Positions 5,588-35,533 of a stretch of 64,000 nucleotides of DNA are shown here, one piece after another. How positions within the stretch are numbered: the first letter of the stretch is position 1; each line of letters opens with the position of its first letter. The notes below the pieces were generated by a model. The model saw only the letters and a list, made by a program, of their open reading frames with translations, searched no databases and was not told the DNA's origin. Origin of the DNA: Labilithrix sp. (GTDB lineage Bacteria > Myxococcota_A > Polyangia > Polyangiales > Polyangiaceae); the NCBI GenBank assembly GCA_046351255.1, contig JAXLYU010000005.1:1146583-1210582 (forward strand). The letters run 5' to 3'. Both the position numbers and the translations under genes were made by a program.

Positions 5588-5623
5588 TTGACGCTCGCGC
5601 CACGCGAATGACGAAAGCGTCAA
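5588..5623. promoter_or_regulatory. Inverted repeat TTGACGCT-N20-AGCGTCAA in a divergent intergenic region (candidate operator)
   Basis: Perfect 8-bp arms seen directly in the sequence between the minus gene ending at 5580 and the PilZ gene starting at 5740. Confidence 0.3.
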
Positions 5624-5739
5624 CCTCATGGCAACACGCGGTTTTTCTAGATTGTTTCTCAAGCTCGAGACCCTCTGACCGTTCCCCCTACGTAGAAACG
5701 CTGGCCGTCGTGAGCGGCCGTTCCGGAGGAGACAGGACG

Positions 5740-13046: not shown

Positions 13047-13059
13047 GCGCGCGGTCCCC

Positions 13060-13728
13060 ATGACCGACTTCCTGGGAAAGCCGATCGCGCTCGTCGTCGC
13101 GCTCGCGCTGGTCTCGCTCCTTCCGTTCGTCTTCATGGGCGTCACCGCCTTCGTGAAGATCTCGACCGTCCTCCAGATCGTCCGGAGCGCGATCGGCGCG
13201 CAGTCGGTGCCCTCGAACACGGTCATCATGGCGCTCGCGACGTCGCTGACGCTCATCGCGATGGCGCCCGTCGGCCAGCGCATCTTCGATCGCGCCGCGC
13301 CGCTGGCGGCTCAGGCGGAGAAGAAGAACCAGGACACGAGCGCGCTCATCGAGCAGGGCGTCCTCGCCGTCAGCGAGCCGATGCGCGATTTTCTCGCGAA
13401 GAACTCCGCGGAGAAGGAGCAAACGCGCTTCCTCCTCGTCGCGAAGAACGCCCGGCCGGAGGCGGAGCGCGACAAGGTCGGCGCAAAGGACCTCTCCGTG
13501 CTCGTGCCCGCCTTCGTGGTGACGGAGCTGACGGAGGCCTTCGCCATCGGCTTCCTCATCTACCTGCCGTTCCTCGTCATCGATCTCGTGATCGCCAACG
13601 TGCTCCTCGCGCTCGGCATGCAAATGCTGAGTCCCACGCAGGTGAGTCTGCCCTTCAAGCTCCTCCTCTTCGTCGCCATCGACGGCTGGGGGCTCTTGGC
13701 GCAGGCCCTCGTTCAAGGCTACAGATAG
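13060..13728 (+). CDS. fliP: FliP/SctR family export-apparatus protein (flagellar or T3SS type)
   Basis: TAFVKISTVLQIVRSAIGAQSVPSNTVIMALATSLTLIAMAPV and C-terminal LPFKLLLFVAIDGW are characteristic FliP/YscR motifs. 222 aa. Confidence 0.85.
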   Translation: MTDFLGKPIALVVALALVSLLPFVFMGVTAFVKISTVLQIVRSAIGAQSVPSNTVIMALATSLTLIAMAPVGQRIFDRAAPLAAQAEKKNQDTSALIEQGVLAVSEPMRDFLAKNSAEKEQTRFLLVAKNARPEAERDKVGAKDLSVLVPAFVVTELTEAFAIGFLIYLPFLVIDLVIANVLLALGMQMLSPTQVSLPFKLLLFVAIDGWGLLAQALVQGYR

Positions 13729-14016: not shown

Positions 14017-14089
<73 letters not shown>

Positions 14090-14434
14090 CTACTCAGAGC
14101 CGATGCCGAAAGGTGCGCCGGCGCGCGAACCGCGCCCTCTGGCTCGATGCGTGCTCGATGCGCCTTGGCTCCCCGCGACGGAGAACCCGACCAAGACGGC
14201 GCTGTCCGGTCGTGGCATCGAGCTCGTGCGTGATTGTGTAGAATACATGCAATCGGTCCGGCTCGCGCCCGCTGGCGCCAGAGAGAGGACGACCGCCGCT
14301 CGTCGGGCCACCTCACGACGCCCGGGCTGTCGCAGCCGCGCGATGGTCCGGAGCGCGTGAGAACACGCAGCGCACCGCGTCATGACAGTTTCCCGAACGC
14401 CGGTGGTCGACAAGAGGTTAATCTGAGCGTCCCA

Positions 14435-22125: not shown

Positions 22126-23463
22126 CTAGGCCGCGGTCTCCGGTGACGGAGACGCGGCCTTCGTGGCTTTCGAGGCGAAGAGGCCGATGACGATCGCCAC
22201 CACCGAGAAGAGAGCGAGCAGGGCGAGGAGCCCGAACGCCACGTCGTACGAGAAGCCGAACGCGCGCTGCGGAAATACCTGGGAGAGCGCCCACTCGATC
22301 ACGCCGTTCCAGACGAGCGCGGCGGCCCCGGTGCCGAAGACGCACCCGAGAATGCGACCGGCGCGCGACGGTCGCTTCGCCCAGACACGCCCGAGCGTCA
22401 CCGAGGCCGTGATCGTCGCCAGCGCCATCACGGCGATGAGAATGAGCCAGTAACCCTTCGTCTGCTCCATTCCGAAGAGGAGGCCGCGCCGCGACATGAC
22501 CTCCATGGAGAGCTCGCCCGGGGGCAGACCCGGGAGATTCGCGCGATAGGAGGTGCCGTTCGACTCCGGAGTGAAGGGGACCGACGACGAACGCAGCTTC
22601 GTATCGGGAGGGAGCTGAAGATCGACGTGCAGCTCGCCGAATCGAGCCCACCGCCGGGCCGGCGAAAGCAGATATTCGTAATGGAAGACGGTATTCACCG
22701 CCCGCCCCGAGTCGCTGCCGGCGATATGCGTATAGCGAACGACGACGGCTCGTGAGGCGCCGGCCGGGATCGCCAGCGGAAACGTCAGCCAGGAGAGCGG
22801 CGCGTGGTAGGAGCGCGTGGTCCACCCTCGCTGCAGCTTCGGGATCTCCTCGGGGATCGCCTCCGCGGCGGCGCGCAGCACGTCGTTCCGCGTCGGCGCC
22901 GGGCGGGACGCATACCAGCGAAGGAGATCGGAGCAGTCGCCGTCGCAGCCTTTCGCGAAGCGGCGCAGCCTCTCCGTATCTCGATATCCAGGATGACGGT
23001 CGAGCGCGTCGAGGGCCTCGAGCTCGTGCGCCGCCTCCGGGTTCGCTCCGAGCCAGCGCTCGAGGAGCGGCCCCAGCACGTCGGCCTCCGTCACGAGCCG
23101 GCCGGTGACAGGCGCGCCGTCGATCGTGACCTTGGCCTCGACCTCGGGCCGGCCGTGCTCGGCCGAGACCATCACGAAGGCGACGTCGGCCTGAGTATCG
23201 GCGTGTCCGCCGTTCGTCATGCGGTAGGTGGCGGTGACCTCGGCGGACGCGAGCGTCGGTGCGACCACGAACGAGAGGTCCTCGGAGTCGACACGGACCT
23301 CGGTATCGTTCTGCGGAACGAGCGAGCCGTGGGACGCGCCTTCGCTCCACCACTTCGCCATGTTCGCGCGCGCGTCGTGCGTGGCCAGCAGACCGGCGCC
23401 GAGCAGCGGCGCGACGCGGAGCCAGTGACGCGAGCGCGGCCGATTCATCACGGGGAGCATCAC
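22126..23463 (-). CDS. Membrane protein, unknown function (N-terminal signal peptide, large extracytoplasmic domain, four C-terminal TM helices)
   Basis: Hydrophobic helices YWLILIAVMALATITASV..., ILGCVFGTGAAALVW..., FGLLALLALFSVVAIVIGLF. Confidence 0.5.
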   Translation of the reverse strand: MMLPVMNRPRSRHWLRVAPLLGAGLLATHDARANMAKWWSEGASHGSLVPQNDTEVRVDSEDLSFVVAPTLASAEVTATYRMTNGGHADTQADVAFVMVSAEHGRPEVEAKVTIDGAPVTGRLVTEADVLGPLLERWLGANPEAAHELEALDALDRHPGYRDTERLRRFAKGCDGDCSDLLRWYASRPAPTRNDVLRAAAEAIPEEIPKLQRGWTTRSYHAPLSWLTFPLAIPAGASRAVVVRYTHIAGSDSGRAVNTVFHYEYLLSPARRWARFGELHVDLQLPPDTKLRSSSVPFTPESNGTSYRANLPGLPPGELSMEVMSRRGLLFGMEQTKGYWLILIAVMALATITASVTLGRVWAKRPSRAGRILGCVFGTGAAALVWNGVIEWALSQVFPQRAFGFSYDVAFGLLALLALFSVVAIVIGLFASKATKAASPSPETAA

Positions 23464-25463
23464 GTCGAAGAAGGATCGTCGGGCCGCGAGCGACGGCGCG
23501 CGGCGGCGAGCATTCCAAGCAATAGCAGGCCGAACGGATTGTCGGTCGAGGCCTCACCGACCGCGCGGCACCCACACTTCGAGCTCGGCTTGGGCTCAGC
23601 CTCGACTCGTCCGGCGTCCTGGTTCGCCGCGTTCGTCGCGGTGGACGGGCCGGCGTCGGTGTCCTTCGCGCCGAGAGGCGTCCCGCCGAGGTCGGCATTC
23701 GCGGCCGTGGTGAAGGCGCTCAGCGTGGTCGTGCCGTGCGGCTGGAGGCCGAGCTTCGTCGCGCTCGTGGTCTCTTGTTTCGCACCGGCGTCGGGCCAGG
23801 GCCCGCCCCACGTCCCGCGGTGTGGCTCCTTGCATTCGATGGGGCCGGTCCAGGGATGGCGAATGGCATAACGCGCCTGGAAGCTGCTCGTGGTCGACGC
23901 CTTGGCCGCGCCGTGATCGAGCTTGTTGTCCTCGCTCCACAGCTCGCGTCCGCCCACGATGGGGTGAGCGACACGGAAGACGAGATCCTGTCCGAGCGAG
24001 CCCTGGCCGTAGCGCGCGTGGAGGCGCGTCACGACGAGCGGCGCGGCGAGCGAGAGGCCGCCCGACCCTCCGACCCCGCCGCCGCCCGGCGCGAAGGTGA
24101 TCGGGTACGTGACAGTCACCTTCTTCTTGCCGTCGGGCTGCGGGAACGTGAGCCCCTGGAAGGCTCTCACCACGCAATCGACGACCGTCTTGTCGGGGAG
24201 ATCCGAGCCGCCGTCCTTCGCCGAGGCCACCGACCCATCGGGCGCGATATCGAACTTCACCACGACCCTGCCGTTCAGGGTGGGATTCAGGCGGAGTCCG
24301 TTCTCGTAGCAGAGGCGATACCGGCCGAAGCTCTGGCGCACGATCCGGTGCACGACCTCGGGCGCCAGGCCGGGTGAGACCTCGGTCGCGCCCATACGCA
24401 CGGTCGGCGGGCTGCTGCGAACGCCTCCGGAACCTGTCAGGGTCGGCACCACGTCGGCGCCGAGCGAGGCGATGTCGGCTCCCGTCATGCCCGTGGTGTC
24501 TCCGGGGCAAGGATCGCACGACGTGGCCTGCCATGCGTACTCGGTGACGACGGCGCCGGGGTTCTGCTCGACGGTGTGGTCGTAGAGGCTCGAGTAGAAT
24601 GCCCCGAACTCACCGCGCGCCTTCTCCGAGACATCGAGGTTCGTCGGGATGGTGACGTTGGTGAAATTGGCCACTTCGTAGCGCTCGCGGCCGAGCACGT
24701 AAACGATGAGGTCCTGCGTGCCCGACGAGTTCAGGAGCCCGAGCTTGACGGGTAGTTCGAGCTTCTCGCTGTCGTAGTGGAAGCGCAGAGGGGAGAGCGC
24801 GGCGCGGCCCCCGCTGTCGAATTTCACCTTGCTGATATCCACTTTGGCGACGAAGAACTTCGAGCCGCTCTCCACATAAGGCTTCAGCACGTCGGCCGCG
24901 CCCGCGGGGATCTTGTAGTGGTTGTCGCGTAGCCACGCGTCGAGCCCGGTCGAGTCCTTGGCGCCCAGGATGAGGATGTCGTATTCGCCGACGCTGAACT
25001 CGGCGGCGATGGTGACGCCGTAGTCTCCGCCGCCGGCGCGGCCGTGACCGCTGCCGAAGCCCTGGCCAGTGCCAGTGCCGGCGCCGTGACCGATCGTGCC
25101 GAGGCCACCGAGACCGACGGCGCAGGGATCTTGCTCCCAGTACTCGACGAGGCGCGGCGCGGTGAGCTTGTCGATCCGATCGAAGACGTCCTTCGAGAGC
25201 GTCTTCACGTTCTCCTTCTGGAGGACGACGGGGACGGGCACGACGAGCGCGAAGTCGGCGGGCGGTCCCTTGTAGTCGTTCTGCATCGAGAGCACGGTCC
25301 GCGTGCCGTCGCGCATGAGCACGACCTGCGTCGCGTCGTTGAACATCTTCGCGTCCGCCCCGCTCACGTAGAAGCCGCAGAACGCGTCCGCGCTTCGCGA
25401 GGCGAAGAGCGAGAGACCAAGTCCGACCGCCAGGCCCGAGACGACACGCCGCCCACCCATCAT
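23460..25463 (-). CDS. Secreted DUF2330-like protein with a MYXO-CTERM-type C-terminal sorting tag
   Basis: Signal peptide, then FCGFYVS...LMRDGTRTVLSMQNDYKGPPADFALVVPVP. Ends ...SKCGCRAVGEASTDNPFGLLLLGMLAAARRRSRP (Cys motif, then hydrophobic, then RRR). Paralog of the gene at 51776..53185. Confidence 0.7.
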   Translation of the reverse strand: MMGGRRVVSGLAVGLGLSLFASRSADAFCGFYVSGADAKMFNDATQVVLMRDGTRTVLSMQNDYKGPPADFALVVPVPVVLQKENVKTLSKDVFDRIDKLTAPRLVEYWEQDPCAVGLGGLGTIGHGAGTGTGQGFGSGHGRAGGGDYGVTIAAEFSVGEYDILILGAKDSTGLDAWLRDNHYKIPAGAADVLKPYVESGSKFFVAKVDISKVKFDSGGRAALSPLRFHYDSEKLELPVKLGLLNSSGTQDLIVYVLGRERYEVANFTNVTIPTNLDVSEKARGEFGAFYSSLYDHTVEQNPGAVVTEYAWQATSCDPCPGDTTGMTGADIASLGADVVPTLTGSGGVRSSPPTVRMGATEVSPGLAPEVVHRIVRQSFGRYRLCYENGLRLNPTLNGRVVVKFDIAPDGSVASAKDGGSDLPDKTVVDCVVRAFQGLTFPQPDGKKKVTVTYPITFAPGGGGVGGSGGLSLAAPLVVTRLHARYGQGSLGQDLVFRVAHPIVGGRELWSEDNKLDHGAAKASTTSSFQARYAIRHPWTGPIECKEPHRGTWGGPWPDAGAKQETTSATKLGLQPHGTTTLSAFTTAANADLGGTPLGAKDTDAGPSTATNAANQDAGRVEAEPKPSSKCGCRAVGEASTDNPFGLLLLGMLAAARRRSRPDDPSST

Positions 25464-25610: not shown

Positions 25611-25687
25611 CGGGGCGTCGCACAGCCTGGTAGTGCACGAGCTTTGGGTGCTCGTTGTCGTGGGTTCAAATCCCTCCGCCCCGACCC
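25611..25687 (+). tRNA. tRNA-Pro (anticodon TGG)
   Basis: Acceptor cggggcg/cgccccg (7/7 pairs), D-arm gcac-agcctggta-gtgc, anticodon stem cgagc/gctcg with loop ttTGGgt, T-arm gtggg-ttcaaat-ccctc (one U:U mismatch), discriminator A. Confidence 0.8.
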
Positions 25688-25832: not shown

Positions 25833-27758
25833 ATGGGTAGCCGGCTCGACGAGCTCGCGGCAAGGCTCGTCCTCCTCGACGATCACGACGACGAGGGGAT
25901 CGCGGAGCTCGTCGGTGAGCTTCGTGCGGCCGCGGCGGCGAGCGACGACACGCGCGTCGTGTCGAGCATTCTGCCGGCCGCGGACGCCGTCACGACGACG
26001 ACTGGTCCCGCGCGCATCGCCGCGCTCGCCCGCCTGCGCCAGGTCGTGGCGGACGCGCACCAGGCGGCGAAGCCACCCATCATCCTCTTCAGCGAGGCCG
26101 ACAAGGAGCTCTTCGGTGAGTTCGTGGAGGAGTCGCGCCGGAACCTCTCGGACGCAGAGGCCGCGCTCCTCGCGCTCGAGAGCAGCCCGCACGATCGCGA
26201 GGCGATCGCCACCGTCTTTCGTGCGTTCCACACGATCAAGGGAACGGCGGCTTTTCTCGCGCTCGACGAGGTCTCCCGCTTCGCTCACGCCGCCGAGAAC
26301 CTCCTCTCCCAGATGCGCGCGGGGGAGGTGCACTGCGTCGGGCGCAACGCAAATCTAGCGCTGCGATCCATCGATATCCTCCGCGCGTTCATCGAGGAGG
26401 TGGCGCAGAGCTCGCGCAGCGGACTGCCGCCGTCGCCTCCGCCGGAGGCGATCGCGCTCACCATCGAGCTCGCACGTCCGGACAAGCCCGATGCGGCCGG
26501 GGAGGCGTTCTCTTCCATGATGCCGGTCGACGAGACGACGCGCGAGGCGACGCGTGGACGGTCCGGCGAAGAGAGCACCTGGATGCGCGTTCGGACCGAG
26601 CGCCTCGATCGGTTGATCGACGTGGTCGGTGAGCTCGTCATCGCGCAGTCCATGGTGTCGCAGGACCCGAGCGTGGCCCAGGGGGAGCGCGAGGACCTGC
26701 GACGCAAGGTGGGTCACGCGGCGAAGATCGTGCGCGAGCTGCAGGGGCTCAGCATGAGCCTGCGCATGGTGCCGCTGAAGCCGACGTTCCAGAAGCTGAC
26801 GCGGCTCGTGCGCGACCTCGCGCGGCGTACGGGGAAGGATGTCCGGTTCGCCACGGAGGGAGACGACACGGAGATCGACCGCAACATGGTCGACACCATC
26901 GCCGATCCCCTCGTGCACATGATCCGAAACGCGATCGACCACGGGCTCGAGGACCCCAAGGTGCGGCTCGAGGCGGGCAAGCCGATCCATGGAACGGTCA
27001 CGTTGGCCGCGTCTCACTCGGGCGGAGACCTCGTGCTGCAGCTCTCGGACGACGGCAAGGGAATGGATCCCGCGATCATCGTGCGCAAGGCGATCGAGCG
27101 AGGGCTCATCCGCTCCGAGAGCGCAATGAGCGAGGCGGAGATCCTCGGGCTCGTCTTCGAGCCAGGCTTCTCGACGCGCGACAGCGTGAGCGATCTCTCG
27201 GGACGCGGCGTCGGCATGGACGTCGTGAAGCGCGCGGTCGAGGCCTTGAAGGGGCGGATCGAGACCGCGTCCATCGTGGGATCCGGCACGAAGTTCACGA
27301 TCCGCGTCCCGCTCACGCTGGCCGTGACGGACGGCATGCTCGTTCGCGTCGGGGAGGAGCGCTTCATCTTTCCGACGGCGGCGATCCGGACGACCTTCCG
27401 GCCGACCCGCGAGATGGTCTCGACCATCGCCGAGCGCGGCGAATACGTTCGCGTGCGTGACGAGAACGTCCCTCTCTTCCGCCTGCACCACGTGTTCGAC
27501 GTGCCGGGAGCGGAGAAGGATCCGACGCGAGCCCTCATCGTGGTCCTGGACGCGCCCGACGGCCGCGTCGGCTTCCTGGTCGACGAGCTCCTCGGCCAGC
27601 AACAGGTCGTGAGCAAGGCGCTCTCGCACTCGATCCTCGTCGTGCGCGGGATCGGGGGCGGCGCCATCCTCGGCGACGGACACGTCGGGCTCATCGTCGA
27701 TCCGCCGGGGCTGATCGCGCTGGCTCAAGACCTGACGGCGTTTCGACGCGCGGCGTAG
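25833..27758 (+). CDS. cheA: Chemotaxis histidine kinase CheA
   Basis: Hpt (FRAFHTIKGTAAF), HATPase (DDGKGMD...GRGVGMDVV) and a C-terminal CheW-like domain. Confidence 0.9.
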   Translation: MGSRLDELAARLVLLDDHDDEGIAELVGELRAAAAASDDTRVVSSILPAADAVTTTTGPARIAALARLRQVVADAHQAAKPPIILFSEADKELFGEFVEESRRNLSDAEAALLALESSPHDREAIATVFRAFHTIKGTAAFLALDEVSRFAHAAENLLSQMRAGEVHCVGRNANLALRSIDILRAFIEEVAQSSRSGLPPSPPPEAIALTIELARPDKPDAAGEAFSSMMPVDETTREATRGRSGEESTWMRVRTERLDRLIDVVGELVIAQSMVSQDPSVAQGEREDLRRKVGHAAKIVRELQGLSMSLRMVPLKPTFQKLTRLVRDLARRTGKDVRFATEGDDTEIDRNMVDTIADPLVHMIRNAIDHGLEDPKVRLEAGKPIHGTVTLAASHSGGDLVLQLSDDGKGMDPAIIVRKAIERGLIRSESAMSEAEILGLVFEPGFSTRDSVSDLSGRGVGMDVVKRAVEALKGRIETASIVGSGTKFTIRVPLTLAVTDGMLVRVGEERFIFPTAAIRTTFRPTREMVSTIAERGEYVRVRDENVPLFRLHHVFDVPGAEKDPTRALIVVLDAPDGRVGFLVDELLGQQQVVSKALSHSILVVRGIGGGAILGDGHVGLIVDPPGLIALAQDLTAFRRAA

Positions 27759-27775: not shown

Positions 27776-28276
27776 ATGACGACGGAGATCAGCAACGTGA
27801 GCGAGCGACTCGGCGGTAAGTACCTCACCTTCGGGCTCGGCGAGGAGGAGTACGGAGTCCGGATCGGTCACGTGCAGGAGATCATCGCGATGCTCCCCGT
27901 CACCCGCGTCCCCAAGACGCCCGAGGTGGTGCTCGGTGTGATCAACCTTCGCGGCAAGATCGTTCCGATCTTCGATCTTCATCGGAAGCTCGGGATGACC
28001 TCGGCCACGACGACCCGGCATACCTGCATCATCGTCGTGAAGGTCGACCAGACCGCGGTCGGGATCGTGGTCGACCGCGTGCGCGAGGTCATGGCGATCG
28101 GAGACGACCAGATCCAGCCAGCGCCGACCTTCGGCGCGGACGTCTCGACCGCGCACTTGCTCGGCATCGCGACCACGAGCGGCGGTGCGCGCCTGCTCCT
28201 CGCGATCGAGCGAGTCCTGTCGACCAGCGAAGTGCTCGCGATCGGGGACGAAGTAGGCGAAGCGGTGGCGGCCTGA
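27776..28276 (+). CDS. cheW: Chemotaxis coupling protein CheW
   Basis: YLTFGLGEEEYGVRIGHVQEI...VINLRGKIVPIFDL is the canonical CheW fold signature. 166 aa. Confidence 0.9.
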   Translation: MTTEISNVSERLGGKYLTFGLGEEEYGVRIGHVQEIIAMLPVTRVPKTPEVVLGVINLRGKIVPIFDLHRKLGMTSATTTRHTCIIVVKVDQTAVGIVVDRVREVMAIGDDQIQPAPTFGADVSTAHLLGIATTSGGARLLLAIERVLSTSEVLAIGDEVGEAVAA

Positions 28277-28313: not shown

Positions 28314-30767
28314 ATGAAGAAGACGAGTACGCGACGTGGGGCCCGGACGAAGAAGGTGAGCCGTCGGACGGCGCGGTTCACCCCGCCGGCTCCGAGTCGG
28401 ATCACCGCCACCGCGAGCGAGGCGCGCCGGATCATCGCCGCGAGCGGACTCGGCGATGAACACCTCGCGCTCCTCGCTTCACAGCGCGAGCCGATCCTCG
28501 CGCACCTAGGTCAGGTGCTCGACGCCTTCTACGCCAAGGTCACCGACCACTCCGAGACGCGCTCGGTGCTCCTCACGCACTCGACCGTCGATCGCCAGCG
28601 CCCCATCCTCGACCGCTTCCTTCGGACGCTGTTCGCCGGTCAGATCGACGACGCGTGGGTCGCGCTCCGTAACGTCGTCGGCGTGCGGCACGACAAGATC
28701 GATCTCCCGGCCGCCTACTTCATCGCCATGTATTCCGTCCTCGAGGACGAGTTCATCGCCGTTGCGGAGCAACGAGTGAGGCTGCGAGGAACCAAGCTCT
28801 CGGCGTTCCGCGACGCGCTCTCGCGCATCCTCGACGTCGACAAGAACCTCGTCCTCAACGCCTTCGACGAGTCCCGCCGCGCGCGCATCTCCGACGTGGT
28901 CCAGGCGCGTCTGAAGCCGATCGATCGCGTGATGGCGGTCATCGAGCTCGACCTCGCGGGCAACGTCATCGAGGCGAACGACAACTTCCTCAAGCTCACC
29001 GAGTATTCGCACGACGAGATCAAGGGGAAGCACCACCGTCTCTTCGTCGACCCGACCGAGGCTGCCTCGCCCGCCTACGCGGACCTGTGGAACGCGATGA
29101 ACCGAGGGCAGGTCGTCGCGGGCGAGGAGCGTCGCTTCGGCAAGGGCGGCAAGGAGCTATGGCTCCAGGCATCGTACAACCCGGTATTCAATCGCGCGGG
29201 GGTCGTCGAGCGCGTCGCGATCTTCGCGACCGACATCACCGCGGAGAAGACTCGCGCCGTCCTCTACGAGGCGCAGATCAAGGCTATCCATCGTGGCATG
29301 GCCGTCGTCGCCTTCGACCCGACGGGCAAGATCCTCGAGGCGAACGAGAACTTCAGCCGCGTGATGGGGTACGACGCCGAGGAGGTCCGCGGCCGGCACC
29401 ATCGGATGTTCGTCGACGCGGCATACGCTGCCTCGCCCGAGTACACCGAGTTCTGGCGCAAGCTCGCAGATGGTCAGTTCCAGAGCGGCGAGTTCAAGCG
29501 GGTCTCCAAGCACGGGGAGCGGTGGCTCCAGGCGTCCTACAACCCGATTGTCGACGCGAGCGGGAAGCTCAGTCGCGTGATGAAGTTCGCGACCGACATC
29601 ACGGACGCGAAGACCGCGCAGCAGAAGCAGGAGGAGCTCGCGGCGATGGTCGCCCGCGACGCCGCCGTCGCGGACGCCTTCCTCAAGGAGGCCGGCGGCG
29701 TCCTCGAGCGCATGGCGTCGCGTGACCTCACAGCGAGGATCGACGGCGAGTACACCGGTCCTTACCTGCGCTTGAAGGAGCTCCTGAACGGGGCCATCTC
29801 GAACCTCGAGCGCACGCTCGGCCAGGTGAACGCCGCTTCGCAGCAGGTCGCGGTGGCGTGCAACGAGATCACGAGCGCGAGCCAGACGCTCGCCCAGGCC
29901 ACGTCACGCGGCGCGAGCACGATCGAGGAGGTGTCCCACAGCCTTCAAGAGATGGCCTCGATGGCGACGCAGAACGCGCGCAACTCGCAGGAGGCACGGA
30001 CGCTCGCGGAGGCCGCTCGCGGCGCGGCGGACAAGGGAGCGCAGAGCATCGGCCGCCTCGCGCAGTCGATCGAGAAGATCAAGTCGTCGTCCGACGAGAC
30101 GGCGAAGATCGTCAAGACGATCGACGACATCGCCTTCCAGACCAACCTCCTCGCGCTGAACGCGGCGGTCGAAGCGGCGCGTGCCGGCGACGCCGGCCGA
30201 GGCTTCGCGGTCGTGGCGGAGGAGGTCCGCAACCTCGCGATGCGGAGCGCCGAGGCGGCTCGCGTCACCGCGCAGCTCATCGACGGCTCGGTCAAGAACG
30301 CGGAGGCCGGAGTCGAGTTCAACGCCGAGGTGCTCCAGAACCTGAGCGAGATCACGACCCGAGTGGCGCGCGTCGGCGATGTCATGAACGAGATCGCGAC
30401 CGCGTCCGAGGCGCAGAGCCATGCCGTCGGACAGGTGACGTCGTCGATGGACGAGCTCTCGAAGCTCACGCAGCAGAATGCGGCCACGAGCGAGGAGACC
30501 GCCGCCGCGTCGGAGGAGCTGAGCGGACAGGCCGGCAGTCTCCTCGATCTCGTGTCGGAGTTCGTCCTGGGCGACGATGAGAGCCCCGCCGAGCGCGTAC
30601 CTCAGCGCACGGTCGAGGCTCGATCCTCGCGCCAGCGCGCGCGCTCGCTGCGCCCGGCGGCGCGACGTACGAACGTGCGCCCGAGCCCGCCGGCTCGGGC
30701 GACGACCAACGGGCGCGCCGCCGACCCGTTCCCCATGGAAGACGACGACATCCTCTCGCAGTTCTGA
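28314..30767 (+). CDS. Soluble methyl-accepting chemotaxis protein: sensor-globin (globin-coupled sensor) + 2 PAS + MCP signalling domain
   Basis: N-terminus VGVRHDKIDLPAAYFIAMYSVL matches the G-VH-RIGLP--WY proximal-His region of HemAT-type sensor globins. Two PAS domains (GNVIEANDNFLKLTEY...HHRLFV; GKILEANENFSRVMGY...HHRMFV). MCP core TNLLALNAAVEAARAGDAGRGFAVVAEEVRNLA. No TM helices. Confidence 0.8.
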   Translation: MKKTSTRRGARTKKVSRRTARFTPPAPSRITATASEARRIIAASGLGDEHLALLASQREPILAHLGQVLDAFYAKVTDHSETRSVLLTHSTVDRQRPILDRFLRTLFAGQIDDAWVALRNVVGVRHDKIDLPAAYFIAMYSVLEDEFIAVAEQRVRLRGTKLSAFRDALSRILDVDKNLVLNAFDESRRARISDVVQARLKPIDRVMAVIELDLAGNVIEANDNFLKLTEYSHDEIKGKHHRLFVDPTEAASPAYADLWNAMNRGQVVAGEERRFGKGGKELWLQASYNPVFNRAGVVERVAIFATDITAEKTRAVLYEAQIKAIHRGMAVVAFDPTGKILEANENFSRVMGYDAEEVRGRHHRMFVDAAYAASPEYTEFWRKLADGQFQSGEFKRVSKHGERWLQASYNPIVDASGKLSRVMKFATDITDAKTAQQKQEELAAMVARDAAVADAFLKEAGGVLERMASRDLTARIDGEYTGPYLRLKELLNGAISNLERTLGQVNAASQQVAVACNEITSASQTLAQATSRGASTIEEVSHSLQEMASMATQNARNSQEARTLAEAARGAADKGAQSIGRLAQSIEKIKSSSDETAKIVKTIDDIAFQTNLLALNAAVEAARAGDAGRGFAVVAEEVRNLAMRSAEAARVTAQLIDGSVKNAEAGVEFNAEVLQNLSEITTRVARVGDVMNEIATASEAQSHAVGQVTSSMDELSKLTQQNAATSEETAAASEELSGQAGSLLDLVSEFVLGDDESPAERVPQRTVEARSSRQRARSLRPAARRTNVRPSPPARATTNGRAADPFPMEDDDILSQF

Positions 30768-30769
30768 CC

Positions 30770-31561
30770 ATGGTCTTCCCCGACGAAGCCTCCGATCGGG
30801 AGGGGCTCCAGGCGGTCTGCCGACTGGTGGAGGACCGGACGGGGATCCTCCTCCCGGTCGAGAAGCACGCGATGGTCACGGCGCGCATCGCCCGCCGCGT
30901 CCAGCGGCTCGGTCTGGCTCGGTACGCGAGCTATGCCGAGCACGTGGTCCAGCCGGAGAACGCGAGCGAGCTCACCGCGCTCGTAGACGCCCTGACCACG
31001 AACAAGACGTCGTTCTACCGCGAGCGGGCTCACTTCGACGTGCTCGCGCGACACCTCGCGGGGCCCGCGGCTCGCACGGCGAGCCCGCGCCTGTGGAGCG
31101 CGGGCTGCTCCTCCGGTCAGGAGCCGTACACGATGGCCATCACCGCCCTCGCGAGCGGAGCGTCGCGGGTGCGCATCCTCGCGACGGACCTCTCGACGCG
31201 CGTGCTCGACATCGCCAGGGCGGGTCGTTATCCGTTCGCGGAGGCAGCGGACATCCCGAAGCAGAAGCTGGCGACGCACTTCGCGCGCGAAGGGGCCGAG
31301 GTCGTCGTCAGCCCGGAGCTCCGCGCTCGCGTCGCCTTCGCTCAGCTGAATTTCCGCGACTCGTGGCCGATGCGAGGGCCATTCGAGGCCATCTTCTGCC
31401 GCAACGTCATGATCTACTTCGATCGGGCGATGCGGACCGACCTCGTCGCGCGGTTCCGCGAGCTGCTCTCGCCGGGGGGCCTGCTCTTCATCGGGCTCAG
31501 CGAGGGGCTCGTCGGTGAGCACGGGCTTCGGCTCGTCGCGCCCGGTGTGTATCGACGATGA
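30770..31561 (+). CDS. cheR: Chemotaxis methyltransferase CheR
   Basis: RLWSAGCSSGQEPYTMAI (SAM-binding) and NVMIYFD, typical CheR motifs. Confidence 0.9.
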   Translation: MVFPDEASDREGLQAVCRLVEDRTGILLPVEKHAMVTARIARRVQRLGLARYASYAEHVVQPENASELTALVDALTTNKTSFYRERAHFDVLARHLAGPAARTASPRLWSAGCSSGQEPYTMAITALASGASRVRILATDLSTRVLDIARAGRYPFAEAADIPKQKLATHFAREGAEVVVSPELRARVAFAQLNFRDSWPMRGPFEAIFCRNVMIYFDRAMRTDLVARFRELLSPGGLLFIGLSEGLVGEHGLRLVAPGVYRR

Positions 31562-32595
31562 GCGCACGTCGAATCCGCATCCTCATCGTCGACGACTCTG
31601 CCCTCGTCCGGCGCCTCCTGACCCAGCAGCTCGCGAGCGTGCCGGACTTCGAGGTCGTTGGGTGCGCCACCGATCCCTATGCCGCGCGCGACCGCATCCT
31701 CGAGCTCCAGCCCGACGTCATCACGCTCGATATCGAGATGCCGCGCATGGACGGGCTCGAGTTCCTCGAGCGAGTGATGCGCTACCACCCGCTCCCCGTC
31801 GTCATCGTCAGCTCGCTCGCGCCCGAGGGGAGCGACGCGGCGTTCCGTGCGCTCGAGCTCGGCGCGATCGAGATCGTCGCCAAGCCGCGGAATCAGTACT
31901 CCGCGCCCGACGTGCGTGACGGTCTGATCCGAGCCATCCGCGCCGCGGGGCAGGCGAAGGTCGCACCGCGGGCGAGGCCGGCCGCGGGCGCGAGGCCCGT
32001 GGTGCGCGGTGTGTCGGCGTTGAAGACCACCGACCGCGTCGTCGCGATCGGCGCGTCCACCGGCGGAACGGTCGCACTCGAGCGCGTGATCCTCGGCTTG
32101 CCGGCGGCCATTCCGGGGATCGTCATCGTCCAGCACATGCCTCTGGGCATGACCGCGCCATTCTCGCGTCGACTCCAGTCACTGACGAAGCTCACCGTTC
32201 GCGAGGCGCGCGACGGCGACGTCATCGCCCCCGGTCTCGTCCTCGTCGCGCCCGCCGGCCATCATGCCGTCGTCCATCGCTCCGGCGCGCAGCTCGTGGT
32301 GCGACTGAAGGACGGGCCGCGCGTGCATCATCAACGACCCGCGGTCGACATCCTCTTCAAGTCCGTGGCGGCGGCAGCGGGACAGAACGCGATCGGCGTG
32401 CTGCTGACCGGGATGGGCGCGGACGGCGCGGAAGGCCTCCTCGCCATGAAGGACGCCGGCGCGGAGACGATCGGCGAGTCGGAGGAGTCGTGTGTCGTCT
32501 ACGGGATGCCGCGCGCGGCCGCAGAGCTCGGGGCGGTGAAGCGCGTCGTGGCGCTCGACGAGGTGGCGAACACGATCGTCAGGGCGTGTGCCTGA
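31558..32595 (+). CDS. cheB: Chemotaxis methylesterase CheB (receiver + CheB methylesterase)
   Basis: ATGA overlap with cheR. ILIVDDSALVRR...DIEMPRMDG (receiver). IGASTGG...QHMPLGMT...GMGADGAEG (methylesterase catalytic motifs). Confidence 0.9.
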   Translation: MSARRIRILIVDDSALVRRLLTQQLASVPDFEVVGCATDPYAARDRILELQPDVITLDIEMPRMDGLEFLERVMRYHPLPVVIVSSLAPEGSDAAFRALELGAIEIVAKPRNQYSAPDVRDGLIRAIRAAGQAKVAPRARPAAGARPVVRGVSALKTTDRVVAIGASTGGTVALERVILGLPAAIPGIVIVQHMPLGMTAPFSRRLQSLTKLTVREARDGDVIAPGLVLVAPAGHHAVVHRSGAQLVVRLKDGPRVHHQRPAVDILFKSVAAAAGQNAIGVLLTGMGADGAEGLLAMKDAGAETIGESEESCVVYGMPRAAAELGAVKRVVALDEVANTIVRACA

Positions 32596-32837: not shown

Positions 32838-34910
32838 ATGAGGCTGGGTGCGCCGAAATTCTTCCTCTCGGCCACCGCCGCGCTGGGGGTCCTCGGCGCG
32901 GCGCTGATGACGTTGTTCGCCACCTCGTCACCGTCGCTCGGGCCTCGCTTCGTCGAGCCGGGGCACGTCGTCGTCGCGATCGGGGATGGCCGCGAACGCG
33001 TCGCCATCGACGCGGATGCGCTCGTCGAGGACCCGGACTTCCTCCCGTCCTACGCGAAGCGCGACGTCTTCTTCGAGAAGCACGCGCGCCTCTCGAAGGT
33101 GCTCGAGTCGCCGGAGGTCGTCCTCTATTCGGCCGACGGGACAGAGGAGCGCGTTCGCCCGCAGCCGCGCACCGTCGCGATGCTGCCGTTCGTCTTCTGG
33201 TACCAGCTCTTCTGCGGGCTCATCGCGCTCCTCACTGGAGCGACCGTGTTCGCGTTTCGTCGTGACCAGCCCGCCGCCCGCCTCTACGGGCTGACGGGGC
33301 TCTCGTTCGCGATCATCACGTACACCGCTGCCTCCTACAGCGTGCGCGAGCTCACGCTCGAGCCGCGGCTATTTCGAGTACTGGCGGCAGCGGATCACTT
33401 CGGGTCGATGGCGTTTGCGCTCTTCTACGTCGCGCTCGTTCATCAGTATCCGACGCGGCTATCCCGCTTTCCGCTGGAGCGCGTCCTCGGCGTCGTGCTG
33501 GGCGCGACGTTCGTCCTCGACACGGTCGGTCTCTTGCCGAGCCCCGACTGGGGAATTCGTATTCCGATCATCGTCGGGCAGCTGACCGGGATTGTCTTCG
33601 GCGCCATTCAGTGGCGACGTACGCAGCGCGACCCCGTCGGTCGCGCTCGCGTGCAGTGGCTGCTCCTCTCCATGCTGCTCGGCGGATCGGCGTTCGTGGT
33701 GTCCGTCTTCGTCACCGTCACGCTCGGACACGATCCGTTCGTATCGCAGGGATACGCGTTCGGGTTCGTGCTCACGATGTATCTCGGTATCGCGCTCGGG
33801 GTGACGCGATATGGGATCTTCCAGCTCGAACGCTGGTGGGTCTCGGTGTGGCTCTGGGTCGTTGCCGGCGCGGCGGTGGTCGTCGTCGACCTCACGCTGA
33901 TGTCCGCGCTCCAGCTCGGTCGCGCGACGGCGGCGAGCGGCTCGGTCCTCCTCGTGGGATGGGCCTACTTTCCAGTCCGGCAATGGATCCTTGCTCGCCT
34001 CGGTCGCCGTCGCGATGTCGATCTGCAGCGTCTGCTCCCCCGCATCGTGAAGCTCGGCCTGCGCGACGTAGCGGCCCACGACCTCGCGCTCGACTGGCGA
34101 GCCCTCCTGAAGGAGGCGTTCGATGCCCTGGAGGTGACAGACACGGCCGAGGAGGTTCGCGACGTGCGGGTGGCGGAGGACGGCCTCGCGCTCCTCGTCC
34201 CGGGCATCGCGGGACAGCCGGCGACGCGCATCGCGCTCGCGCATCGGGGCTCGCGTCTCTTCACTCCGAGCGAGTGTCAGACCGTGCAGGCTCTCGTGGA
34301 GCTCATCGAGCACACGCTCGAGCAACGCAAGGCCTACGATCGCGGGGCGAAGAACGAGCGCGAGCGCGTCGCCCGCGATCTGCACGATGACATCGGAAGC
34401 CGTCTCCTCACGCTCGTCCATCGCTCCGAGGGCGGGCCCGCCGCGGAGCTCGCGCGGGACGCGCTGCGCGAGCTCCGCACCGTCGTGTCCACGCTCGGCG
34501 CGGGGCCGGCGCCGCTGACCGCCCTCGTCGCGGACTGGCGCAACGAGGCGGCCGACCGGTGCGAGGCGGCGGGCATCACGCTCGCGTGGGAGCAGCACGA
34601 CGTGGCGGACGAGGTATGGATCGACGCCACCACCCACACGAACGTGCTGCGCGTGCTCCGCGAGGTCCTCTCGAACGCCCTGCGCCATGCCCGGCCGGGC
34701 CGCATCGAGATCGTGGTCTCCGTGACGGACGGAGCACTCGTTTTCGACGTGCTCGACGACGGGCAGTCTCCGGCGCCCTCGAGCTGGGCCCGGGGCCGCG
34801 GACTATCGAATATCCGGCAGCGTCTGGACGCGCTCGGCGGAAAGCATGATATTCGAGCACGTGAGCCCAGCGGGACGCACGTGACGTTCCGGGTGCCCTT
34901 CACCTCATGA
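32838..34910 (+). CDS. Sensor histidine kinase: N-terminal TM + extracytoplasmic domain + 7TM bundle (7TMR-DISM-like) + HisKA_3 + HATPase
   Basis: ERERVARDLHDDIGSRLLTL is the HisKA_3 (NarX/DegS-type) H-box. C-terminus LSNALRHARPG...LDDGQS...RGRGLSNIRQR (ATPase). Confidence 0.8.
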   Translation: MRLGAPKFFLSATAALGVLGAALMTLFATSSPSLGPRFVEPGHVVVAIGDGRERVAIDADALVEDPDFLPSYAKRDVFFEKHARLSKVLESPEVVLYSADGTEERVRPQPRTVAMLPFVFWYQLFCGLIALLTGATVFAFRRDQPAARLYGLTGLSFAIITYTAASYSVRELTLEPRLFRVLAAADHFGSMAFALFYVALVHQYPTRLSRFPLERVLGVVLGATFVLDTVGLLPSPDWGIRIPIIVGQLTGIVFGAIQWRRTQRDPVGRARVQWLLLSMLLGGSAFVVSVFVTVTLGHDPFVSQGYAFGFVLTMYLGIALGVTRYGIFQLERWWVSVWLWVVAGAAVVVVDLTLMSALQLGRATAASGSVLLVGWAYFPVRQWILARLGRRRDVDLQRLLPRIVKLGLRDVAAHDLALDWRALLKEAFDALEVTDTAEEVRDVRVAEDGLALLVPGIAGQPATRIALAHRGSRLFTPSECQTVQALVELIEHTLEQRKAYDRGAKNERERVARDLHDDIGSRLLTLVHRSEGGPAAELARDALRELRTVVSTLGAGPAPLTALVADWRNEAADRCEAAGITLAWEQHDVADEVWIDATTHTNVLRVLREVLSNALRHARPGRIEIVVSVTDGALVFDVLDDGQSPAPSSWARGRGLSNIRQRLDALGGKHDIRAREPSGTHVTFRVPFTS

Positions 34911-35533
34911 AGCAAGCATTGGTGGTCGAAGATCTTCCCACCGCGCGGGAATGGCTGAGCGACATCATCGTGCTCGCCTTTCCGGGGATCACGGTCAAGG
35001 CCGCGGAGGGCCTGGCGCAGGCGCGCGCAGCCTGCGCGGAGACGACCTTCGACCTCGTGCTCGTCGATCTCAACCTTGGCGACGGCTCCGGCGTGGACCT
35101 GATTCGGGAGCTGAGCGAGCGTTCTCCGTCGACGGACTGCGTGGTCGCCACCCTCTACGACGACGACCAGCATCTCTTTCCCGCGCTCCAGGCGGGCGCT
35201 CGCGGATATCTGCTGAAGGAATACGAGAAGCATCAGCTCGTGACGTCGCTGAAAGGCATCCTCGCCGGCGCGCCGCCGCTCTCGCCGAAGATCGCGCGCC
35301 GCGTGATCCAGCACTTCCACGCACCGAAGCACGCGGACGGCCCGAAGCTCACGCCGCGCGAGATCGAGGTCCTCACGCTCGCGGCGAAGGGCCTTCGGGT
35401 GAAGGAGATCGCAGAGGCGACCGGCATGAGCCCCCACACCGCAGGGGACCATCTGAAGGCGATCTACAAGAAGCTGAACGTCTCGTCCCGAGCGGAAGCC
35501 ACGCTCGAGGCCTCTCGTCGCGGTCTCGTCTAG
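34907..35533 (+). CDS. NarL/LuxR-family response regulator
   Basis: ATGA overlap with the kinase gene. ALVVEDLPTAREWL...DLNLGDGSG (receiver). LTPREIEVLTLAAKGLRVKEIAEATGMSPHTAGDHLKAIYKKLNV (LuxR HTH). Confidence 0.9.
   Translation: MKQALVVEDLPTAREWLSDIIVLAFPGITVKAAEGLAQARAACAETTFDLVLVDLNLGDGSGVDLIRELSERSPSTDCVVATLYDDDQHLFPALQAGARGYLLKEYEKHQLVTSLKGILAGAPPLSPKIARRVIQHFHAPKHADGPKLTPREIEVLTLAAKGLRVKEIAEATGMSPHTAGDHLKAIYKKLNVSSRAEATLEASRRGLV

Follow-up and report, generated by a model that had tools for sequence, protein, structure and literature searches.

The che operon and its surroundings

The DNA analysed here is a stretch of 64,000 nucleotides from Labilithrix sp. (contig JAXLYU010000005.1 of assembly GCA_046351255.1), referred to below as the window. 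It carries on its forward strand a chemosensory operon in the order cheA-cheW-mcp-cheR-cheB, the features of which are collected in Table 1. An earlier reading of the letters without database searches (the sequence-only reading) had proposed this operon, and the Pfam identities of the genes, their positions and the ATGA overlap between cheR and cheB (31558-31561) all matched the proposal. The intergenic gaps of cheA/cheW, cheW/mcp and mcp/cheR are 17, 37 and 2 nt, and a scan of the region from 25.4 to 33 kb for promoters and terminators gave nothing useful, so that the limits of the operon are drawn from gene spacing only. In translation, CheA carries an acidic N-terminal extension of about 90 aa, and the NCBIfam CheA match spans P3-P5.

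Table 1. Features of the receptor gene and its surroundings (positions in the window; residue numbers refer to the receptor)
Feature	Position	Strand	Evidence or remark
tRNA-Pro (TGG)	25611..25686	+	ARAGORN; 146 nt upstream of cheA
cheA	25833..27758	+	Hpt, H-kinase_dim, HATPase_c, CheW-like (P5); no receiver domain
cheW, coupling protein	27776..28276	+	Pfam CheW, E=1.3e-36
mcp, receptor gene	28314..30767	+	817 aa; order globin-PAS-PAS-HAMP-MCP; soluble
Basic N-terminal tail, residues 1-29	28314..28400	+	11 K/R, 0 D/E; predicted disordered
Sensor globin (Protoglobin/GCS type), residues ~36-190	28419..28883	+	PF11563
Distal Tyr73 codon	28530-28532		
Proximal His126 codon	28689-28691		
PAS1, residues ~201-312, dyad His240-His241	28914..29249	+	Pfam; custom PAS-subfamily HMM; model
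PAS2, residues ~323-434, dyad His362-His363	29280..29615	+	Pfam; custom PAS-subfamily HMM; model
HAMP-like linker, residues ~447-500	29652..29813	+	Weak HAMP_2 match; Tsr alignment; model
MCP methylation and kinase-control hairpin, residues ~501-750, tip ~624	29814..30563	+	PF00015; Tsr alignment; model
C-terminal Arg/Pro-rich disordered linker, residues 755-810, and acidic end	30576..30764	+	pLDDT <50 for 755-810
cheR, methyltransferase	30770..31561	+	Pfam CheR, E=1.9e-50, and CheR_N
cheB, methylesterase (REC and CheB_methylest)	31558..32595	+	Pfam; ATGA overlap with cheR
HisKA_3 histidine kinase	32838-34910	+	Pfam; 243-nt gap after cheB
NarL/LuxR-type response regulator	34907-35533	+	Pfam; after the HisKA_3 kinase

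Orthologs of the receptor were found only in about eight Polyangiales MAG or metagenome loci, in each of which the operon is the same and lacks CheY, and their hosts are uncultured MAGs throughout. The order cheA-cheW-mcp-cheR-(cheD)-cheB is kept in the window, in the six loci L001, L002, L003, L005, L008 and L009, and in the P0039 contig. In these six loci the CheA orthologs occupy the same position and are 51-63% identical; CheW is 73-78% identical across the orthologous loci, cheR and cheB are syntenic, and CheD is present in most of the clusters. This synteny, conserved in about eight loci, lends support to the earlier notion of a dedicated Che pathway. The receiver domains of the cluster are confined to CheB, plus a REC-CheX protein in two loci, and the comparison of the orthologous loci revealed no conserved CheY or effector gene.

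Several neighbouring features were considered as part of the system and set aside. The tRNA-Pro gene, whose adjacency had been pointed out from the sequence, is real; none of the same six loci (0/6) has a tRNA near the operon, which makes the adjacency incidental, and this absence, together with a flat GC content over the window, ruled out a tRNA-linked genomic island. The HisKA_3 kinase and the NarL-type regulator that follow cheB were discarded as a conserved output, as they are missing beside the operon in L001, L002, L005 and L009. The FliP-like gene at 13060-13728 was likewise rejected as a sign of a flagellar connection, since NCBIfam assigns its product to the injectisome SctR family and it falls under the flagellar FliP cut-off. 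Finally, a REC match at 3080-3409, a candidate CheY, belongs instead to a REC-Fis-type regulator.

Architecture of the receptor and its signalling domain

The receptor reading frame lies exactly where it had been placed, and an identical protein is on deposit under the title 'MAG: methyl-accepting chemotaxis protein [Labilithrix sp.]'. A hydropathy scan of all 817 residues found no transmembrane helix: the best 19-residue Kyte-Doolittle mean is 1.25, whereas a transmembrane helix would be expected at about 1.6 in such a window, which bears out the claim that the protein lacks one. The domain anatomy was established by Pfam, with E-values far past chance level. The two PAS units (209-310 and 329-433) do precede the signalling domain (MCPsignal, 564-719), and the HHR(L/M)FVD motifs reported for them are found as HHRLFVD at residues 240-246 and HHRMFVD at 362-368. 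In a full-length model, which is a monomer with a pTM of 0.38 and whose interdomain geometry is for that reason unreliable, the globin H-helix (residues 159-206) runs unbroken into PAS1, the link from PAS2 to HAMP is helical, and the hairpin is of 36H length.

The signalling module starts with the HAMP-like linker, which matches HAMP_2 weakly and under the cut-off (E=0.0047), aligns without gaps on the HAMP connector/AS2 of Tsr starting at Tsr residue 231, and is modelled as a helix (430-468), a loop and a second helix from residue 483. It is followed by the MCPsignal domain (PF00015, E=3.6e-42, 144.6 bits against a Pfam cut-off of 34.6 bits), modelled as a hairpin of two helices (483-623 and 625-748) whose tip residues are invariant in alignment A5. 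The alignment to residues 231-528 of E. coli Tsr extends over 298 residues with zero gaps (E=3e-50), methylation sites included; the EE/QE pairs of the receptor coincide with Tsr sites 2-3, and a motif scan located the strict methylation consensus AATSEETAAA at residues 723-732. The alignment to TM1143 (2CH7) pairs query residues 106-310 (205 residues) with chain residues 66-284 (219 residues), and these unequal lengths imply indels. Judged by alignment only, the signalling domain is 36H-like, with the helix length of E. coli Tsr/Tar (36H heptad class of Alexander & Zhulin).

The N-terminal tail has 11 K/R and no D/E in 29 residues, its residues 1-24 have a pLDDT <50 in the full-length model, and a K/R-rich tail is present in 4/4 orthologs. 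By this composition, disorder and conservation it resembles the basic N-terminal tail, of about 30 aa, of FrzCD, a soluble MCP of M. xanthus in which that tail binds the nucleoid and scaffolds the arrays (PMC5716589). The N-terminal regions of the two proteins, however, are not homologous in sequence, and FrzCD has neither globin nor PAS. At the other end, the receptor terminates in a conserved acidic motif, ...FPMEDDDILSQF, whose ending, FP[LM][DE]DD[DE][ILV]L[GST][KQ]F, is common to all orthologs and forms a short helix (residues 811-816) in the full-length model. Certain chemoreceptors end, after a flexible linker, in an xZxxZ pentapeptide, the second and fifth residues of which are aromatic (Z = F/W/Y; Ortega & Krell 2020, PMC7390727). 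The receptor does possess a disordered linker, of about 55 aa, and lacks this pentapeptide, as its last five residues are ILSQF, with Leu at position 2.

The sensor globin

Residues 36-185 match the Protoglobin profile PF11563 strongly (E=1.6e-25; 90.4 bits against a Pfam cut-off of 25 bits; profile positions 4-153 of 158), and the string from which a sensor globin had been suggested, VGVRHDKIDLPAAYFIAMY, is present at residues 122-140. The best matches of the domain among PDB sequences (phmmer) are HemAT (1.6e-13) and AfGcHK (2.6e-7). On alignment, His126 stands in register with the proximal His of HemAT (H123) and AfGcHK (H99), and Tyr73 with their distal B10 Tyr (Y70 and Y45, respectively). 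The AF2 model of the globin (pLDDT 97.4, pTM 0.90) superimposed on HemAT in Foldseek with TM scores of 0.79/0.92 and an rmsd of 1.2 Å; its best matches were HemAT, AfGcHK and GsGCS, and the top 25 were all GCS or protoglobin structures. Both the globin fold and the key residues were thereby established, the former from a model of high confidence and the latter from the alignment, in agreement with the sensor-globin N-terminus originally proposed. The two findings that would have spoken against that proposal, a missing globin fold or an unconserved proximal His, did not turn up. An exhaustive HMMER search of 1.84 billion representative sequences with the globin domain retrieved 864 relatives. 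Among the closest 150 of these, with domains mapped by phmmer, His126 is kept in 149 and Tyr73 in 147, the former being also invariant in alignment A2.

We infer from these features that the domain probably holds a b-type haem through His126, that Tyr73 and probably also Gln95 face it from the distal side, and that a diatomic gas, most likely O2, would be bound there. In HemAT and other GCS proteins, O2 is bound at a haem with a His ligand (Hou et al. 2000/2001, as cited in PMC13401364). In the receptor, Gln95 and Ile98 occupy the positions of HemAT Leu92 and Thr95, and, the distal pocket being different, the ligand preference of HemAT is not transferable. A pocket with Tyr-B10 and Gln and with an aliphatic residue at the Thr95 position, unlike the O2-stabilising pocket of HemAT, could serve a haem-based sensor of NO, CO or haem redox state, signalling nitrosative or redox stress instead of providing aerotaxis, and ligand selectivity does vary among GCS proteins. 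However, Thr is likewise replaced by an aliphatic residue in AfGcHK and DosC, which are both O2 sensors, and no sign of NO metabolism was found in the neighbourhood of the operon. We regard this alternative as unlikely and favour O2 as the ligand.

The PAS pair and its probable origin

The PAS units match PAS_9, PAS_3 and PAS_4 in Pfam (E 1e-24 to 1e-27), and the strands and helices of PAS1 extend across residues 208-307 with pLDDT >90 in the full-length model. With a custom HMM, both units fall in a highly conserved 'His-His' subfamily, whose pocket residues are at least 97% conserved over 624 PAS units. The sequence-only reading had raised a redox role for the PAS domains, which found no support: in the alignment to Aer (8DIK), residues R57, H58, D60 and N85 are replaced by V, D, T and R, respectively, and the only positions kept are those of W70 (W259 in the receptor) and H53 (H241). 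R57, H58, D60, N85 and W70 are the flavin contacts of Aer, and the residue comparison thus gave no backing to a cofactor of the FAD or LOV type. Over hundreds of homologous units the pocket is nearly invariant, His-His dyad included, and this favours a real ligand or cofactor.

Units of this subfamily also occur in multi-PAS cytoplasmic MCPs of Alteromonas, Pseudoalteromonas, Vibrio, Methylophilus and actinomycetes, which carry 4-8 'His-His' repeats and likewise have an MCP output. The PAS units of these proteins are about 50% identical to those of the receptor, with every invariant residue in place. Unlike the receptor, they are devoid of a sensor globin, the number of PAS copies is higher and the MCP module is further removed (median identity 38%); an aromatic xZxxZ pentapeptide ends 39 of 116 of them. 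A second group of relatives, PAS-less globin-HAMP-MCPs of about 480-570 aa from metagenomes (e.g., P0124, P0136 and P0158), contains the globins closest to that of the receptor (39-43% identity) and shares with it a 'TVERQRP' Gln-type distal motif; a short basic N-terminus occurs in many of them and an acidic-LxxF end in some, and the PAS pair is what they lack. The HAMP+MCP module of the receptor is nearest to theirs, with 55-59% identity versus 38-51% to the multi-PAS MCPs; for the PAS pair, the identity to units of the latter is about 53%. To judge from these values, a receptor of the globin-HAMP-MCP kind seems to have received the PAS pair by insertion after the globin H-helix.

These data also bear on the possibility that the PAS pair is the main sensor, reading a metabolite or cofactor state through its His-His pockets, with the globin as an accessory dimerisation or modulatory cap. 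None of the near-invariant residues of the subfamily, which 116 of the 120 best full-length matches contain in 4-8 tandem copies, is missing from the units, and conservation this high implies a conserved ligand or cofactor. Nevertheless, the backbone of the receptor is closest to proteins with a globin and without PAS, the globin has kept all of its haem-ligating and distal residues, and PAS1 deviates at positions that are invariant in the subfamily (E230 for Gly, I303 for Lys and L212 for Phe), suggesting that the constraint has relaxed for at least one of the two units. We consider this explanation quite unlikely and retain the globin as the probable gas sensor.

Comparison with known receptors

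The closest characterized protein is HemAT, the aerotaxis transducer of B. subtilis and H. salinarum (1OR4/1OR6), which is the top PDB match of the globin by both sequence and fold. Both proteins are soluble, with an N-terminal sensor globin that has the proximal His and B10 Tyr, and a C-terminal MCP domain feeding CheA/CheW. In contrast to HemAT, the receptor has two PAS domains and a HAMP-like unit between globin and MCP, a signalling domain that aligns gap-free on the 36H Tsr (HemAT is 44H), a basic N-terminal tail, a long linker leading to an acidic-LxxF end at the C-terminus, and a host with no flagellar genes in view. The interposed PAS-PAS-HAMP segment, the Tsr-like 36H hairpin and Ile98 at the T95 position led to the rejection of a narrow HemAT-type transducer.

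Within the myxobacteria, Cc_4972 of Corallococcus coralloides, from cluster Cc-5, combines PAS, Bac_globin and MCPsignal; from in silico work, Sharma, Parales & Singer (2018, PMC6194562) proposed for it a role in aerotaxis or energy taxis. Like the receptor described here, it is a cytoplasmic MCP that joins PAS with a globin, and its cluster (CheA-CheW-MCP-...-CheB/CheR) is likewise devoid of CheY. However, its globin is a truncated haemoglobin (PF01152), a family for which the receptor gave no Pfam match at E<=0.01; it has one PAS and not two; its cluster includes ABC1 and ABM genes and has the order CheB-CheR; and its host belongs to the Cystobacterineae. The same survey reported no PAS-containing MCP in the rest of 34 myxobacterial genomes, Labilithrix luteola included, and 2-5 MCPs per genome, none with PAS, in Polyangiales (PMC6194562). 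An MCP joining PAS with a truncated globin having been described already in 2018, the receptor is a modest addition.

The same phylum also harbours AfGcHK and M. xanthus NmpU, whose sensor globins share the fold, the Tyr-B10 and the proximal His of the receptor; the output of both is a histidine kinase, without PAS, instead of an MCP and Che pathway. These myxobacterial GCS kinases have been tied to O2 and pilus motility, NmpU being proposed to couple O2 to type IV pilus motility (PMC6211767).

A model for signalling

These observations can be integrated in a model, which we consider probable, of a dimeric, cytoplasmic, globin-coupled chemoreceptor in which a haem gas signal passes through the PAS pair to the receptor's own Che pathway. 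Binding of the gas, most likely O2, would change the globin dimer, and the change would be transmitted along the long H-helix to PAS1, then to PAS2 and the HAMP-like unit, and from there to the Tsr-like (36H-type) four-helix hairpin. The hairpin would control the CheA of the operon through CheW, while CheR and CheB (plus CheD in most orthologs) would reset the receptor by methylation. The PAS pair may act as a mechanical relay or as a second input for a small ligand. The sign of the response and the output of the pathway are what we infer rather than observe. As no flagellar genes are in view in the Polyangiales hosts, any behaviour under control would be gliding or pilus-based, or the target would be unrelated to motility, which the sequence-only reading had held to be the likelier case in myxobacteria.

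HemAT binds and senses ethanol independently of its haem (PMC7542364), so that a globin fold is no guarantee of gas sensing, and non-haem sensor globins exist (PMC8717448). That the globin is a non-haem one of the RsbR type, or works through a haem-independent pocket, is nevertheless very improbable: the globin alignments show little or no variation at the proximal His, at the B10 Tyr and at the B9 Phe, the best structural matches are all haem-bound GCS proteins, and Pfam returns PF11563 and not the RsbR N-terminal family.

A more elaborate scheme, to which we give only a slim chance, would make the haem-based receptor a two-input integrator of O2 at the haem and a metabolite or cofactor at the PAS pair, assembled on the nucleoid by its histone-like tail as FrzCD is, with CheR and CheB recruited by the non-aromatic acidic-LxxF tether, in a CheY-less pathway for a non-flagellar behaviour specific to Polyangiales.

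Significance

Both globin-coupled sensors and chemoreceptors with PAS domains are well-known classes, and the receptor adds a combination of domains and not a new principle. It is, however, a natural construct in which, between a haem globin and a Tsr-like hairpin, the signal would have to travel through a PAS pair and a HAMP unit, and as such may be useful for the study of relay through stacked modules. It may also offer a route to the ligand of the widespread 'His-His' PAS subfamily, of which hundreds of uncharacterised cytoplasmic MCPs contain 4-8 repeats. For the Polyangiales themselves, the locus represents a candidate oxygen-responsive Che pathway, and would bear on how non-flagellated myxobacteria respond to oxygen.

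Receptor gene and operon

The receptor gene lies in the che operon exactly where the sequence-only reading had placed it, and a database entry on a 1.56-Mb contig, 'MAG: methyl-accepting chemotaxis protein [Labilithrix sp.]', has the same protein sequence (Labilithrix being a member of the Polyangiales, Myxococcota). Pfam identified CheA, CheW, CheR and CheB as its neighbours, with intergenic spacings of 17, 37 and 2 nt, and the ATGA common to cheR and cheB, as well as the tRNA-Pro(TGG) ending 146 nt upstream of cheA, were found as described. The window CheA consists of Hpt, dimerisation, ATPase and CheW-like domains and lacks a receiver. Since the 19-residue Kyte-Doolittle mean peaks at only 1.25, no transmembrane helix is predicted, in line with the soluble receptor proposed, and both HHR(L/M)FVD motifs and the quoted proximal-His string were recovered in the protein.

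Features of the receptor (residue numbers of the 817-aa protein) and of other genes in the window
Feature	Window position	Receptor residues	Basis
Receptor ORF, 817 aa	28314-30767 (+)		
cheR/cheB, directly overlapping	30770-32595		
N-terminal tail: 11 K/R, zero acidic	28314-28400	1-29	disordered in model
Disordered N-terminus		1-24	full-length model
Protoglobin PF11563		36-185	Pfam E=1.6e-25, 90 bits vs cut-off 25
Proximal-His string VGVRHDKIDLPAAYFIAMY		122-140	
H-helix, last globin helix, 48 residues, continuous into first PAS1 strand		159-206	full-length model
Two PAS units		209-310, 329-433	Pfam
PAS1		208-307	full-length model
HHRLFVD		240-246	
PAS1-PAS2 linker, low confidence		317-326	full-length model
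PAS2		330-428	full-length model
HHRMFVD		362-368	
Near-invariant PAS positions		N222, F225, Y231, H240, H241, F244, Y255	624 units
Near-invariant PAS positions, rest		W259, R274, W283, A286, Y288, N289, P290	624 units
HAMP_2, weak signal		457-498	Pfam
Helix, loop, helix, hairpin, helix		430-468, 483-623, 625-748	full-length model
MCPsignal		564-719	Pfam E=3.6e-42
Strict methylation consensus AATSEETAAA		723-732	
Disordered Arg/Pro-rich linker and conserved end ...FPMEDDDILSQF	30576-30764	755-817	
Disordered stretch, then short terminal helix		755-810	full-length model
REC-EAL protein, PilZ-domain protein, GAF-PAS hybrid kinase with two receiver domains	570-1757 (-), 5608-6129 (+), 54656-57163 (-)		
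FliO-like ORF and FliP-family gene	12720-13728		
tRNA-Ala	14017-14090		
DUF2330 paralogs	23460-25463 (-), 51776-53185 (+)		
ORF with Neur_chan_LBD match, 330 aa	42099-43091 (-)		E=6e-5, 23 bits vs cut-off 26
Topoisomerase-RecQ-like ORF, 1215 aa	43809-47456 (+)		

Globin domain

The claim of a sensor globin hung on a globin fold and a conserved proximal His, and both are present. The profile search for Protoglobin was positive, and the HemAT sensor domain was the top PDB sequence match (E=1.6e-13), followed by AfGcHK, a Vibrio haem-globin RsbR-type protein and a Geobacter GCS globin. Residues 31-133 aligned gap-free with HemAT, placing Tyr73 on HemAT Tyr70 (B10) and His126 on HemAT His123 (F8), and in the AfGcHK alignment the same residues fell on Tyr45 and His99. 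When 1.84 billion representative proteins were searched exhaustively by HMMER with residues 30-204 as query, 864 relatives came up, 111 of them with E<=1e-10; among the best 150 of the 864, His126 is found in 149 and Tyr73 in 147, with Phe72, Gly109, Asp112, Arg119 and Leu131 nearly invariant too. The AlphaFold2 model of the globin (alignment of 41 globin domains) reached a mean pLDDT of 97.4 and a HemAT-like fold, for which Foldseek against the PDB returned HemAT as the best match (TM 0.79/0.92, rmsd 1.2 Å), along with AfGcHK, GsGCS and other GCS globins. Considering the PF11563 match, the conservation of both residues and the modelled fold, the two checks that had been proposed, a profile search and a structure model, came out positive. 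The earlier observation is thus confirmed, and its interpretation is supported within the reach of sequence and modelling.

The distal E-helix of the globin relatives is of two types. In the HemAT-like type, Leu and Thr occupy the HemAT L92 and T95 positions; the second type, of which the window protein is a member, has the motif TV(E/D)RQRP. Gln95 of the window protein (Gln in 79 and Leu in 62 of the 150 closest relatives) aligned with AfGcHK Leu68, a distal-pocket residue, and its residue 98, at the HemAT T95 position, is aliphatic. Because the distal pocket type differs from that of HemAT, the ligand preference of HemAT is not simply transferable to the receptor. An alternative in which the haem would respond to NO, CO or redox state instead of O2 could draw on this difference; it is considered unlikely.

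PAS pair

The closest solved relatives of the receptor PAS are the tandem PAS of MmoS (2e-15), whose PAS-A domain binds FAD, and next come E. coli Aer (FAD), DosP and LOV domains. In the Aer alignment only the W70 and H53 equivalents are retained, the flavin contacts R57, H58, D60 and N85 being replaced by V, D, T and R; an Aer-type flavin site is therefore unsupported. A subfamily HMM, built from the two PAS units of the receptor and run on the 120 best full-length homologs, detected 624 units, at 4-8 per protein, two units being found only in the four globin-bearing proteins. Fourteen positions, a His-His dyad among them, are >=97% identical over the 624 units, and all of these residues are kept by PAS1 and by PAS2, PAS1 being off-consensus at L212, E230 and I303, which are nearly invariant elsewhere. 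These units form a distinct, very conserved subfamily. The Aer alignment puts His241 on the helix at Aer H53, a place also taken by the LOV cysteine and by NifL Glu70, and by analogy it should face the cofactor pocket. Such conservation might speak for the PAS domains as the dominant sensors of the receptor, a role that we hold to be quite improbable. His-His PAS units (window 28914-29615; homologs P0002-P0120) normally occur as 4-8 tandem repeats per cytoplasmic MCP.

Signalling module and tails

The C-terminal 387 residues aligned with E. coli Tsr 231-528 with zero gaps (E=3e-50), and a Thermotoga 44H-type receptor gave a far weaker match, the unequal lengths of the aligned ranges implying indels. 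This makes the signalling module Tsr-like, 36H by alignment, with a HAMP-like unit before it, and sets the receptor apart from B. subtilis HemAT. EE and QE pairs are found at the Tsr sites. In the testable respects the protein is a globin-coupled sensor with MCP output, and it is not a HemAT in the narrow sense, lacking the direct linkage, the 44H class and the Thr at E11. The full-length model (hybrid alignment) has a mean pLDDT of 82; as it is a monomer with pTM 0.38, only secondary structure and per-domain confidence were taken from it.

The two tails are leads, not findings. The N-terminus is K/R-rich, with few or no acidic residues, in 5/5 orthologs, a composition that resembles the basic tail of FrzCD, in which ~30 residues bind the nucleoid and form arrays (PMC5716589). 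Also in 5/5 orthologs, the end FP[LM][DE]DD[DE][ILV]L[GST][KQ]F follows the disordered linker; it resembles the tethered pentapeptide of Tar/Tsr but lacks the aromatic at position 2 that the xZxxZ definition requires (PMC7390727). Acidic-LxxF-like ends recur among the 20/108 related globin-MCPs ending in Phe, and the aromatic xZxxZ motif is present in 4/108 of these MCPs versus 39/116 multi-PAS MCPs. The receptor end may be a variant CheR/CheB tether.

Distribution and origin

Domain mapping of the 150 closest globin relatives (best 150 of 864; phmmer) revealed ~100 PAS-less globin-MCPs of 430-570 aa, four relatives with one PAS (P0129, P0135, P0144, P0150) and a single double-globin MCP (P0121). 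The globin-PAS-PAS-MCP order was confined to one 50%-identity cluster (P0122), and the full-length search added three orthologs with 57-59% identity (P0031, P0033, P0039). When one genome for each GTDB species was scanned by pattern, at least five loci came up, every one of them in a MAG of the Polyangiaceae or Polyangiales, two of the five duplicating loci already collected; since the scan rests on two peptide patterns only, the number is a minimum.

The order cheA-cheW-receptor-cheR-(cheD)-(REC-CheX)-cheB is common to eight distinct loci, with REC-CheX in two of the eight and a stand-alone CheY in none of these operons; the kinase and NarL-type pair downstream in the window are not conserved at the others. 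cheD is present in every other locus where the region is visible, and it lies between cheR and cheB in the orthologous operons L001, L002, L005 and L009 (two also with REC-CheX). Given the direct cheR/cheB overlap, the window operon appears to have lost it.

In pairwise comparisons, the HAMP+MCP module shares 55-59% identity with PAS-less globin-MCPs and only 38-51% with multi-PAS MCPs, and the PAS pair shares ~53% with units of the latter. The simplest history would be that a globin-HAMP-MCP receptor acquired a PAS-PAS cassette, inserted after its globin H-helix and before its HAMP unit. A metagenomic protein of 1252 aa (P0043), a globin+PAS receptor of a different type, carries a classical globin (PF00042), then seven His-His PAS units and an MCP domain, and ends in the aromatic pentapeptide EWQEF. 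P0144 consists of globin, one PAS and MCP, and the L009 ortholog lies on the Polyangiaceae chromosome OZ245328.1; if P0144 is encoded there, that genome would hold at least two globin-PAS receptors.

Other genes in the window

The FliP-like gene 12 kb upstream was rejected as flagellar: by NCBIfam cut-offs it is an injectisome SctR, falling below the flagellar FliP cut-off. It adjoins a FliO-like ORF (below cut-off), the pair is flanked by an aspartokinase gene and tRNA-Ala, and neither a FliQ nor a FliR partner was recognised downstream. In the 1215-aa ORF, a type IA topoisomerase (Toprim and Topoisom_bac) at the N-terminus is joined to a RecQ-like helicase (DEAD, Helicase_C, RecQ_Zn_bind) at the C-terminus, an unusual fusion with a domain order opposite to that of reverse gyrase. 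Of the DUF2330 paralogs, the one at 23460-25463, directly upstream of tRNA-Pro and the che operon and on the other strand, matches TonB_C weakly as well, and the 330-aa ORF shows a sub-threshold match to Neur_chan_LBD, the domain that binds ligand in pentameric ligand-gated ion channels. Signalling genes are abundant in the window, which also holds two sigma-54 activators and several ECF-type sigma factors.

Proposed function and relation to known systems

The analysis establishes the anatomy, the conserved residues, the fold and the synteny; for haem binding, ligand identity, the sign of the response and the output we infer beyond these. A haem held by His126 would bind a diatomic gas, with O2 the likeliest; the change would pass from the H-helix to the two PAS domains and then by way of the HAMP unit to the hairpin tip; and the tip would control the operon's CheA via CheW, with adaptation by CheR and CheB. 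This sequence of events is the best supported and is judged moderately probable. A globin that holds no haem or uses a haem-independent pocket is, beside so conserved a proximal His, highly improbable. A non-motility output, as suggested earlier, would be reasonable; since the M. xanthus protoglobin kinase NmpU was proposed to tune pilus motility by oxygen (PMC6211767), a motility-related output would be equally possible.

The closest idea in the literature is Cc_4972 of Corallococcus coralloides, which combines PAS, truncated-globin (PF01152) and MCP domains in a CheY-less CheA-CheW-MCP cluster; it was suggested in silico to be an aerotaxis receptor (PMC6194562) and was highlighted again in a 2026 review (PMC13401364). 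Its globin family differs from the PF11563 of the window receptor family. Apart from it, all MCPs of the 34 myxobacterial genomes surveyed, including Labilithrix luteola, were reported to be without PAS (PMC6194562). No description of the Protoglobin-PAS-PAS-HAMP-MCP order was found in the literature searched, the coverage being incomplete and absence unproven. As Cc_4972 was the sole PAS-bearing MCP in that survey, the window receptor family makes a second and independent type of globin+PAS receptor in this phylum, so far in uncultured Polyangiales only. The receptor would be of interest mainly as a model of signal relay across stacked sensor domains, as a route to the ligand of the His-His PAS subfamily, and as part of a candidate oxygen-responsive Che pathway in Polyangiales.
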